Source: Escherichia coli (GTDB lineage: Bacteria; Pseudomonadota; Gammaproteobacteria; Enterobacterales; Enterobacteriaceae). From it: 64,000 bases of DNA. Both the position numbers and the translations under genes were made by a program. Positions 58,122 to 59,637 of this stretch are shown in pieces. Within the stretch, counting starts at the first letter, position 1, and each line of letters starts with the position of its first letter. The stretch is taken from NCBI RefSeq assembly GCF_024502345.1, contig NZ_JALDNN010000001.1; one strand, written 5' to 3'. The notes beneath the pieces were generated by a model. It did no database searches, was not told where the DNA came from, and saw only the letters and a list, made by a program, of their open reading frames with translations.

Positions 58122-58173
58122 GCTATTTTTCCTAAAGATGAAAATTATTAGAGTCGCATTAAAAATGAGCTAA

Positions 58174-59368
58174 GGAAGGTGCGAACAAGTCCCTGATATG
58201 AGATCATGTTTGTCATCTGGAGCCATGGAACAGGGTTCATCATGAGTCATCAACTTACCTTCGCCGACAGTGAATTCAGCAGTAAGCGCCGTCAGACCAG
58301 AAAAGAGATTTTCTTGTCCCGCATGGAGCAGATTCTGCCATGGCAAAACATGGTGGAAGTCATCGAGCCGTTTTACCCCAAGGCTGGTAATGGCCGGCGA
58401 CCTTATCCGCTGGAAACCATGCTACGCATTCACTGCATGCAGCATTGGTACAACCTGAGCGATGGCGCGATGGAAGATGCTCTGTACGAAATCGCCTCCA
58501 TGCGTCTGTTTGCCCGGTTATCCCTGGATAGCGCCTTGCCTGACCGCACCACCATCATGAATTTCCGCCACCTGCTGGAGCAGCATCAACTGGCCCGCCA
58601 ATTGTTCAAGACCATCAATCGCTGGCTGGCCGAAGCAGGCGTCATGATGACTCAAGGCACCTTGGTCGATGCCACCATCATTGAGGCACCCAGCTCGACC
58701 AAGAACAAAGAGCAGCAACGCGATCCGGAGATGCATCAGACCAAGAAAGGCAATCAGTGGCACTTTGGCATGAAGGCCCACATTGGTGTCGATGCCAAGA
58801 GTGGCCTGACCCACAGCCTAGTCACCACCGCGGCCAACGAGCATGACCTCAATCAGCTGGGTAATCTGCTGCATGGAGAGGAGCAATTTGTCTCAGCCGA
58901 TGCCGGCTACCAAGGGGCGCCACAGCGCGAGGAGCTGGCCGAGGTGGATGTGGACTGGCTGATCGCCGAGCGCCCCGGCAAGGTAAGAACCTTGAAACAG
59001 CATCCACGCAAGAACAAAACGGCCATCAACATCGAATACATGAAAGCCAGCATCCGGGCCAAGGTGGAGCACCCATTTCGCATCATCAAGCGACAGTTCG
59101 GCTTCGTGAAAGCCAGATACAAGGGGTTGCTGAAAAACGATAACCAACTGGCGATGTTATTCACGCTGGCCAACCTGTTTCGGGCGGACCAAATGATACG
59201 TCAGTGGGAGAGATCTCACTAAAAACTGGGGATAACGCCTTAAATGGCGAAGAAACGGTCTAAATAGGCTGATTCAAGGCATTTACGGGAGAAAAAATCG
59301 GCTCAAACATGAAGAAATGAAATGACTGAGTCAGCCGAGAAGAATTTCCCCGCTTATTCGCACCTTCC
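58174..59368 (+). mobile_element. IS5 (1195 bp) flanked by 4-bp CTAA target-site duplications
   Basis: Ends GGAAGGTGCGAACAAG...CTTATTCGCACCTTCC; ctaa at 58170-58173 and 59369-59372. Confidence 0.93.
58242..59222 (+). CDS. insH: IS5 transposase
   Basis: 326 aa from [12 protein letters not shown]...; alternative upstream ATG at 58206. Confidence 0.92.
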
Positions 59369-59637
59369 CTAATTTTGATAGTGGCTATCTTGTGATTATT
59401 TTCTAATGAGCCCGTGAACTGAACCCCCCATGCTTAATATAAGGTGGAGGGAAAGGTGATTGAAAACTCACCCAGTGGGCTGATCTTTATAAAATATGAA
59501 CAGGTTGAAAAAAAAACAGTAACTTTGCTGTTTTTTATACTTAACCACTATGCATTAATGCTGCGTTATTTCATTCTACCTAAGAAAAACCAGCGTTACG
59601 CAAATGGTCAACGCTGGTTTTATCCGGTACGTTGCAA

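Follow-up and report, generated by a model that had tools for sequence, protein, structure and literature searches.

A complete IS5 element between the convergent genes yhiN and yhiM of Escherichia coli: a probably recent insertion of an already known kind at a lineage-private site

The target duplications of IS5 belong to the YTAR class of tetranucleotides, among which CTAA and CTAG are the commonest. The published anatomy of the element includes a length of 1195 bp, imperfect terminal repeats of 16 bp and a 4-bp target duplication (PMC11677980). The target consensus has been given as C(A/T)A(G/A) (PMC11677980) and as Py-T-A-Pu (PMC5493358), and a preference for AT-rich, superhelically destabilised intergenic DNA has been described (PMC5493358, PMC11677980).

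The native promoter of the transposase gene, ins5A, is extremely weak or essentially inactive (PMC11677980, PMC11894529). In fucAO mutants it is active only through a Crp site located just upstream, and no promoter activity comes from the remaining >90% of IS5 (PMC11894529). In the same system, transcripts from the ins5A start cross the whole IS5, and the downstream operon is expressed at ~85% of the level given by the promoter alone (PMC11894529). The ins5CB promoter is reported to be nearly silent, and terminator-like sequences inside IS5 are mentioned in earlier reports cited in PMC11677980. In E. coli K-12, the IS5 copy transcribed from the nmpC promoter, upstream of it, accounts for most of the transposition (Onstead et al. 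2024, PMC11677980). The activity of this copy scales with the strength of the nmpC promoter, it is the only one in K-12 that gives detectable ins5A mRNA, and the transposase is cis-acting (PMC11677980).

We analysed a stretch of E. coli DNA of 64 kb (the window), in which a sequence-only reading had placed a complete IS5 between the convergent genes yhiN and yhiM. The coordinates, the terminal repeats, the DDE transposase and the neighbouring genes were all confirmed. The element, as read from the window sequence and verified by script, extends over positions 58174-59368 on the plus strand (1195 bp). On the basis of ORFs, Pfam domains and the RefSeq annotation of homologous loci, yhiN (56919-58121, plus strand) encodes an HI0933-like FAD-dependent oxidoreductase and yhiM (59638-60690, minus strand) a DUF2776 inner-membrane protein. 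Both ORFs are full length in the window, and very many public assemblies encode exactly the same 350-aa YhiM protein. The gene pitA is found further left, and a DUF4049 gene of the yhiJ/L type further right. IS5 is located between the 3' ends of yhiN and yhiM, with its left end 52 bp past the yhiN stop codon and its right end 269 bp from the yhiM stop codon, as the earlier estimate of ~270 bp had it; ins5A has the same orientation as yhiN and reads toward the 3' end of yhiM. The insertion is absent from K-12 MG1655, whose annotation shows no feature between yhiM and yhiN, and no Rfam family was matched across positions 56500-61200, even at E <= 1.

The terminal repeats, which begin GGAAGGTGCGAA as expected for IS5, are an inverted pair of 16 bp, imperfect in that one mismatch separates the two arms: IRL (GGAAGGTGCGAACAAG) is at 58174-58189 on the plus strand and IRR (GGAAGGTGCGAATAAG), recovered by a terminal-repeat search of the window, is at 59353-59368 on the minus strand. 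The same search gave exactly two matches to the 16-nt repeat in the 64-kb window, one per strand, where 0.03 were expected by chance. No second copy of IS5 was detected in the window by this search, and therefore neither a composite transposon nor an intra-window recombination partner is present. The right end reads ...CTTATTCGCACCTTCC and is followed by CTAA at 59369-59372. This tetranucleotide, to which no strand is assigned, is identical by script to the one at 58170-58173, immediately left of IS5, where empty sites elsewhere have a single CTAA. The transposase gene ins5A, identified from the ORF list and its Pfam domains, covers 58242-59222 on the plus strand and encodes a DDE transposase of 326 aa; in the variant found in the window, the frame is also open from an upstream ATG at 58206, which gives 338 aa. 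In either form the ORF is uninterrupted, and its product matches PF01609 (DDE_Tnp_1, E 1.9e-35) and PF05598 (DUF772, E 3.7e-21), with both matches exceeding the Pfam cut-offs.

The element had been called perfect, and this description stands in part. Over its 1195 bp it is 100% identical to annotated copies in strains G3/10, 74-2 and PI24 and in several plasmids, which occupy unrelated loci on chromosomes and plasmids and are annotated as 'IS5-like element IS5 family transposase'. However, it differs at 4 nt (99.7% identity) from the K-12 copy in wbbL, which is also flanked by CTAA. The substitution at nt 54 (A>G) lies in the 5' leader and is the one that opens the ORF to 338 instead of 326 codons. 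Two of the four are synonymous in ins5A, and one produces a conservative change in the transposase, R274K. The substitution at nt 647 introduces a stop codon in a long antisense ORF, which has 118 codons and is open in K-12; antisense ORFs are present in the window element, the longest being cut by this stop. The long antisense ORF may correspond to one of the small genes ins5CB, and its interruption could affect the activity of this IS5 variant. The matching transposase copies of K-12 and of strain LCP22S3_I2 are annotated as WP_000019403.1 (981 bp). ISKpn26 aligns to the window element at only about 88-92% identity, and sequence comparison thus assigns the latter to IS5 proper (IS5 family, IS5 group), as distinct from ISKpn26. 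Copies of IS5 in E. coli are found at a median of 2 and at up to 43 places per genome. The scatter of identical copies over many loci and plasmids indicates that this variant transposes, and the copy in the window is probably still mobile.

The history of the site was followed with an empty-site query, made of the window flanks minus IS5 and one CTAA, which was searched in 5426 complete E. coli genomes. A single uninterrupted match was obtained in 3588 of them, with a best identity of 99.8%; the comparison with other E. coli genomes that had been suggested as a check thus shows that the empty site is the norm. The uninterrupted spacer of the other genomes reads ...AAAAATGAGCTAATTTTGATAGTGG..., with one CTAA, and removal of IS5 and one CTAA from the window restores it base for base. 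Since the flanks rejoin into a known empty site, the CTAA repeat is a true target-site duplication rather than a chance repeat, and it is intact, as the sequence-only reading had it. When 140-bp queries spanning the junctions were used, the right junction was found in none of the 5426 complete genomes and the left junction in one, and the exact strings of both junctions gave zero matches in the metagenome collection. The best 25-kb match to the window among the complete genomes reached 98.8%, and the closest draft and metagenome relatives were used in place of an isogenic strain. Contigs encoding an identical YhiN have the empty site in eight of eight places among the matches listed; the closest of them (L010, L017 and L016), with 6-8 differences per 9.2 kb of flank, also have it. 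Contigs encoding an identical YhiM have an uninserted spacer of 315-318 bp. The wide distribution of the empty site, the absence or near-absence of the junctions and the identity of the element to copies found elsewhere argue that the insertion is real and recent. On these comparisons we regard it as a simple transposition, in agreement with the earlier proposal, which took place after the lineage had split from its nearest sampled relatives and at a site that appears to be private to the lineage of this strain.

The genomes in which the empty site was not found in one piece fall into two classes, neither of which involves IS5. In B2-type genomes the yhiN-yhiM spacer is different and short (86 bp), and the others carry a Tn7-like sil/pco island at the yhiN end. 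The insertion point of this island is ATTGC (5-bp duplication), which corresponds to positions 58101-58105 and is unoccupied in the window. In strain AR24.2b the genes for TnsA and TnsD adjoin yhiN, and Tn6230 is listed as targeting the yhiN att site (PMC11406308, Table 1).

As for the target itself, the yhiN-yhiM spacer of the empty site has 317 bp and is 64% AT, as compared to 51% for the whole window, and contains nine YTAR tetranucleotides. The 50 bp centred on CTAA are 72% AT and, by nearest-neighbour calculation, low in duplex stability (94th percentile of the window). The CTAA target agrees with the published preference of IS5 and is typical rather than extreme.

Junctions of IS5-family elements were found at the same spacer in other strains, all within the same 90-bp stretch. 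In strain LCP22S3_I2, from a pig, an IS5 in plus orientation has its yhiN-side junction at the same CTAA and its other end at TTAG inside a DUF4049 gene. In EC21Z-137 and CT29, an ISKpn26 in minus orientation also has its yhiN-side junction at the same CTAA, and its other end is at CTAG in a DUF4049 gene. In PK8217, the yhiN-side junction of an ISKpn26 in plus orientation is at a TTAG located 22 bp to the left, and the other end is in a truncated YhiJ/L gene. In the pig strains ETEC1720, ETEC1722, ETEC1739 and PM4, an IS5 in minus orientation has its junction at a TTAA located 65 bp to the right and its other end at TTAG in a DUF4049 gene. In all these genomes the DUF4049 gene that the other end abuts is truncated, yhiM is missing along with the DUF4049 genes (yhiL/yhiJ-type) or most of these, and the two flanking tetranucleotides do not match. 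This result indicates adjacent deletions mediated by the IS, or recombination between two copies, rather than simple insertions. Between LCP22S3_I2 and the window there are differences in the flank alleles and at 3 positions of the IS5, so that the junction in LCP22S3_I2 derives from an independent event. At the yhiN-yhiM spacer, an intact insertion flanked by a matching duplication was found in the window alone. Some ISKpn26 matches seemed to cover the whole query (H1-H9); these elements lie at other sites, in yhiM, upstream of it or upstream of yhiN, and were discarded.

Three other explanations of these observations have to be weighed against a simple and neutral insertion. Many E. coli carry several copies of IS5, and wrong joins often arise at repeats, so that a repeated IS5 might have been misplaced or collapsed into the yhiN-yhiM locus during assembly. 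Such an artefact is, however, very unlikely: the CTAA duplication is exact at both junctions, a mis-join would not yield an element whose deletion gives back the known spacer to the letter, the flanks on both sides are colinear with other genomes over tens of kilobases, and other complete genomes have an IS5-family junction at this very CTAA. The recurrent junctions suggest a different alternative, namely that the spacer is a hot spot of the IS5 family and that the insertion is not merely neutral, representing the pre-deletion intermediate of a recurrent and possibly selected loss of yhiM-yhiL-yhiJ. In fact, the same CTAA or its 90-bp surroundings were used repeatedly by both IS5 and ISKpn26, always with loss of yhiM, and the event in LCP22S3_I2 was independent of the window insertion. 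Moreover, pigs or poultry are the source of many of the deletion strains, and loss of YhiM is reported to raise copper resistance strongly in uropathogenic E. coli (PMC11005409). On the other hand, the junction queries were anchored on the window's own site, which introduces an ascertainment bias. The use of one of the nine YTAR sites in three of five events gives p ~0.1 under uniform choice and is not significant, the affected strains carry IS5 or ISKpn26 at 10-32 places, so that the deletions may simply reflect IS load, and yhiM is intact in the window. Considering both sides, the pre-deletion explanation is unlikely, and it is rather doubtful that the CTAA 52 bp past yhiN is a structural hot spot for the IS5 family and an entry point to recurrent, perhaps copper-selected, loss of yhiM-yhiL-yhiJ in IS-rich E. 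coli that come largely from livestock; a link of the yhiM deletions in these strains to copper is speculative. If the hot-spot reading were true, the window would preserve an otherwise unobserved pre-deletion intermediate, with a simple insertion and a matching duplication, and the adjacency of the locus to the yhiN attachment site of Tn7-like copper and silver resistance islands would be worth attention. If the yhiM deletions were selected, which is speculative, they would provide a small case of IS-driven adaptive gene loss beside an acid- and copper-stress gene.

The remaining alternative concerns expression. The sequence-only reading had proposed that outward transcription from the right end of IS5 could give rise to antisense RNA across yhiM and alter its expression. 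The direction is right, since ins5A points toward the 3' end of yhiM, and read-through across a whole IS5 is documented in the fucAO system (PMC11894529), but the means appear to be lacking. With the numbering of PMC11894529 (Zhou et al. 2025), in which nt 1 of IS5 is -41, the native ins5A promoter maps on the plus strand to a -35 box gtgcga at 58179-58184 and a -10 box gatcat at 58202-58207, with 17-bp spacing and the transcription start at A 58215. This promoter is reported to be extremely weak or essentially inactive and to depend on help from upstream, for instance by Crp bound to its site (PMC11894529, PMC11677980). A fusion promoter of the fucAO type, with a Crp site ~61.5 bp upstream of the ins5A start, was looked for, and no Crp-like site was found upstream, the best match having 4 mismatches in 10 specified bases. 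The rest of IS5 is described as devoid of promoter activity (PMC11894529), and a consensus scan of 2 kb gave neither an outward nor a hybrid promoter at the right end. The single match of the scan (1 site vs. 2.0 expected by chance), at 59375-59402, belongs to the native flank and is also present at the empty site. In addition, two predicted terminator-like hairpins, both part of the native spacer, lie between the right end of IS5 and the yhiM stop codon. T1 (59511-59536, plus strand) consists of an A-run, a stem and U6, with a fold of -14.9 kcal/mol (z = -3.76); no shuffled sequence folds as well on the plus strand, whereas the minus strand is not significant (z = -0.82). T2 (59584-59624), located just past the yhiM stop codon and flanked by an A-run and a U-run, is predicted to act on both strands, with folds of -21.6 kcal/mol (z = -3.88) on the plus strand and -22.5 kcal/mol (z = -3.63) on the minus strand. 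Two features of an IS-derived antisense regulator are thus missing, an outward promoter and, if the predicted hairpins are functional, an unobstructed path into yhiM. Furthermore, convergent yhiN transcription was aimed at yhiM also before the insertion and already faces T1 and T2 at the empty site; the insertion therefore adds little antisense potential, and we consider an antisense effect on yhiM very unlikely.

The reading that we favour, with good confidence, is that of a single complete IS5 inserted by its own DDE transposase at CTAA in the convergent yhiN-yhiM spacer, in a recent, lineage-private and most likely neutral event. The transposase would have placed the element in the AT-rich DNA that separates the 3' ends of the two genes, and CTAA would have been duplicated when the staggered cut was repaired. 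No coding sequence or promoter is interrupted, which is the reason why we assume that the insertion is most likely selectively neutral. It is, in short, an ordinary IS5 insertion of an already known kind, at a site private to its lineage.

With such a simple insertion, the most plausible consequence is found on the side of yhiN. The ins5A start is 120 nt downstream of the yhiN stop codon and in the same orientation, and the 52-bp gap between yhiN and IS5 contains no significant hairpin (fold of 58110-58180, z = -0.54). The insertion would separate yhiN from its downstream terminator hairpins, so that yhiN transcripts would run into ins5A, and this read-in would raise the transposition of the window copy in cis. 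Transcripts leaving the right end of IS5 would then stop at the two hairpins before reaching yhiM, while leftward ins5CB transcripts would enter the 3' end of yhiN with no hairpin in the way. We infer that read-in from yhiN is a better-grounded consequence than antisense RNA to yhiM, and, if transcription of yhiN is strong enough, the window IS5 may be a fairly active donor. The expression of yhiN may be too weak for read-in to matter, and Rho-dependent termination could occur in the untranslated 120 nt before ins5A. The element would also be a substrate for adjacent deletions of the kind seen at the same spot in other strains.

The private junction offers a strain marker for typing this lineage and points to recent IS5 activity in it. 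The insertion also illustrates how IS elements can accumulate, without harm, in AT-rich spacers between convergent genes. Moreover, genomic context, here a possible read-in from yhiN, may decide whether an IS copy becomes an active donor.

Compared with known systems, the window copy resembles known IS5 in its length, terminal repeats, DDE transposase, YTAR duplication and near-identity to reference copies. It shares with the IS5 of K-12 (InsH/Ins5A) the 1195 bp, the 16-bp imperfect repeats, the 326-aa DDE transposase and the CTAA duplication, and the K-12 copies in wbbL and nmpC are also inserted at CTAA; it differs from K-12 IS5 in the four substitutions, in the antisense ORF that is open in K-12 and in the locus of insertion. 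The nmpC copy offers a close parallel, as it too has a host gene upstream, with the same orientation, and sits at CTAA, so that host transcription can enter ins5A. However, the nmpC copy interrupts its host gene and a strong, Crp-activated promoter drives its ins5A, whereas the left end of the window IS5 is 52 bp beyond the stop codon of yhiN. The insertions at fucAO, glpFK, bglGFB and flhDC involve the same element, the same class of target tetranucleotide and AT-rich, destabilised intergenic DNA (PMC5493358, PMC11894529), but they precede promoters or 5' ends and change expression. The window copy, unlike these activating insertions, is between two 3' ends, far from promoters and with predicted hairpins before yhiM. 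Finally, the deletion junctions of ISKpn26 and IS5 in other E. coli are in the same spacer and, in LCP22S3_I2, EC21Z-137 and CT29, at the same CTAA; in those genomes the tetranucleotides do not match and yhiM-yhiL-yhiJ have been lost, whereas in the window the genes on either side of IS5 are intact.

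The spacer between yhiN (56919-58121, + strand) and yhiM (59638-60690, - strand), which in the window is occupied by the IS5 copy at 58174-59368, holds one end of IS5 or of the IS5-like element ISKpn26 in the complete genomes of eight further strains (LCP22S3_I2, EC21Z-137, CT29, PK8217, ETEC1720, ETEC1722, ETEC1739 and PM4), most of which came from pigs or poultry. The elements lie at 5399-6593, 3069-4264, 3377-4571 and 3135-4329 in the loci of other genomes that we designated L001, L033, L006 and L032, respectively. In empty-site form, the homologous spacer stretch of the window is 58148-58240, and in three of the eight genomes the junction is the very same CTAA that flanks the window copy. 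The second end of these elements falls within a truncated DUF4049 gene, and yhiM-yhiL-yhiJ is deleted in all eight genomes. Since the tetranucleotides flanking the elements are mismatched, the sequence comparison indicates that yhiM-yhiL-yhiJ was lost through IS-mediated deletion.

In a large group of genomes (E. coli CD306, locus L030 12339-12426, and many B2-type genomes), the yhiN-yhiM spacer is only 86 bp long and of different sequence. The match of the empty-site query is confined to its yhiN part, so that these genomes are without the AT-rich target stretch altogether; this is the reason why a single uninterrupted empty site was found in only 3588 of 5426 complete E. coli genomes.

We also observed that a Tn7-like element with TnsA and TnsD genes and sil/pco copper/silver resistance genes uses the 3' end of yhiN as its attachment site. 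The insertion point corresponds to window 58101-58105, in the last 20 bp of yhiN and 65 bp left of the IS5 CTAA (8600-8720 and 19930-20010 in loci L031 and L029 of other genomes). In strain AR24.2b the element occupies the site, flanked by a 5-bp ATTGC duplication; in the window the site is unoccupied. A yhiN att site is listed in the literature as the target of Tn6230 (PMC11406308, Table 1).

Elsewhere, the chu/shu haem-uptake cluster is absent from the window (about 40449-40483). This cluster of ~9 kb lies between yhiD and dctR in those complete genomes that are closest to the window, PapRG-04-4 for example, and the window DNA flanking the missing cluster is nearest to chu-positive lineages (98.5-99.5% similarity).

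Inside the right end of IS5, a small, inward-facing terminator-like hairpin (59324-59336, - strand; GGCTGACTCAGTC followed by a T-rich tail) fits what has been inferred in the literature, namely that transcription entering IS5 from its downstream flank does not cross the oppositely oriented internal genes ins5CB; the count of terminator-like sites in this region is not above chance.

When compared to the K-12 copy, in which a TAG ends a short upstream ORF, the window IS5 has TGG (A>G at nt 54, window 58227), which leaves the transposase ORF open from the ATG at 58206 for 338 aa. This ATG lies 5' of the position to which the transcription start of ins5A maps (58215), and therefore only transcripts that read into IS5 could give rise to the N-terminal extension and with it the 338-aa form. 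At nt 647 (window 58820) a G>A change, also present in the LCP22S3_I2 copy, is synonymous in ins5A, yet makes a stop codon in a long antisense ORF that in the K-12 copy is open over 118 codons. Possibly this ORF is an ins5CB gene; for the ins5CB genes, stimulation of transposition has been reported. Copies identical to the window variant are widespread despite this stop codon.
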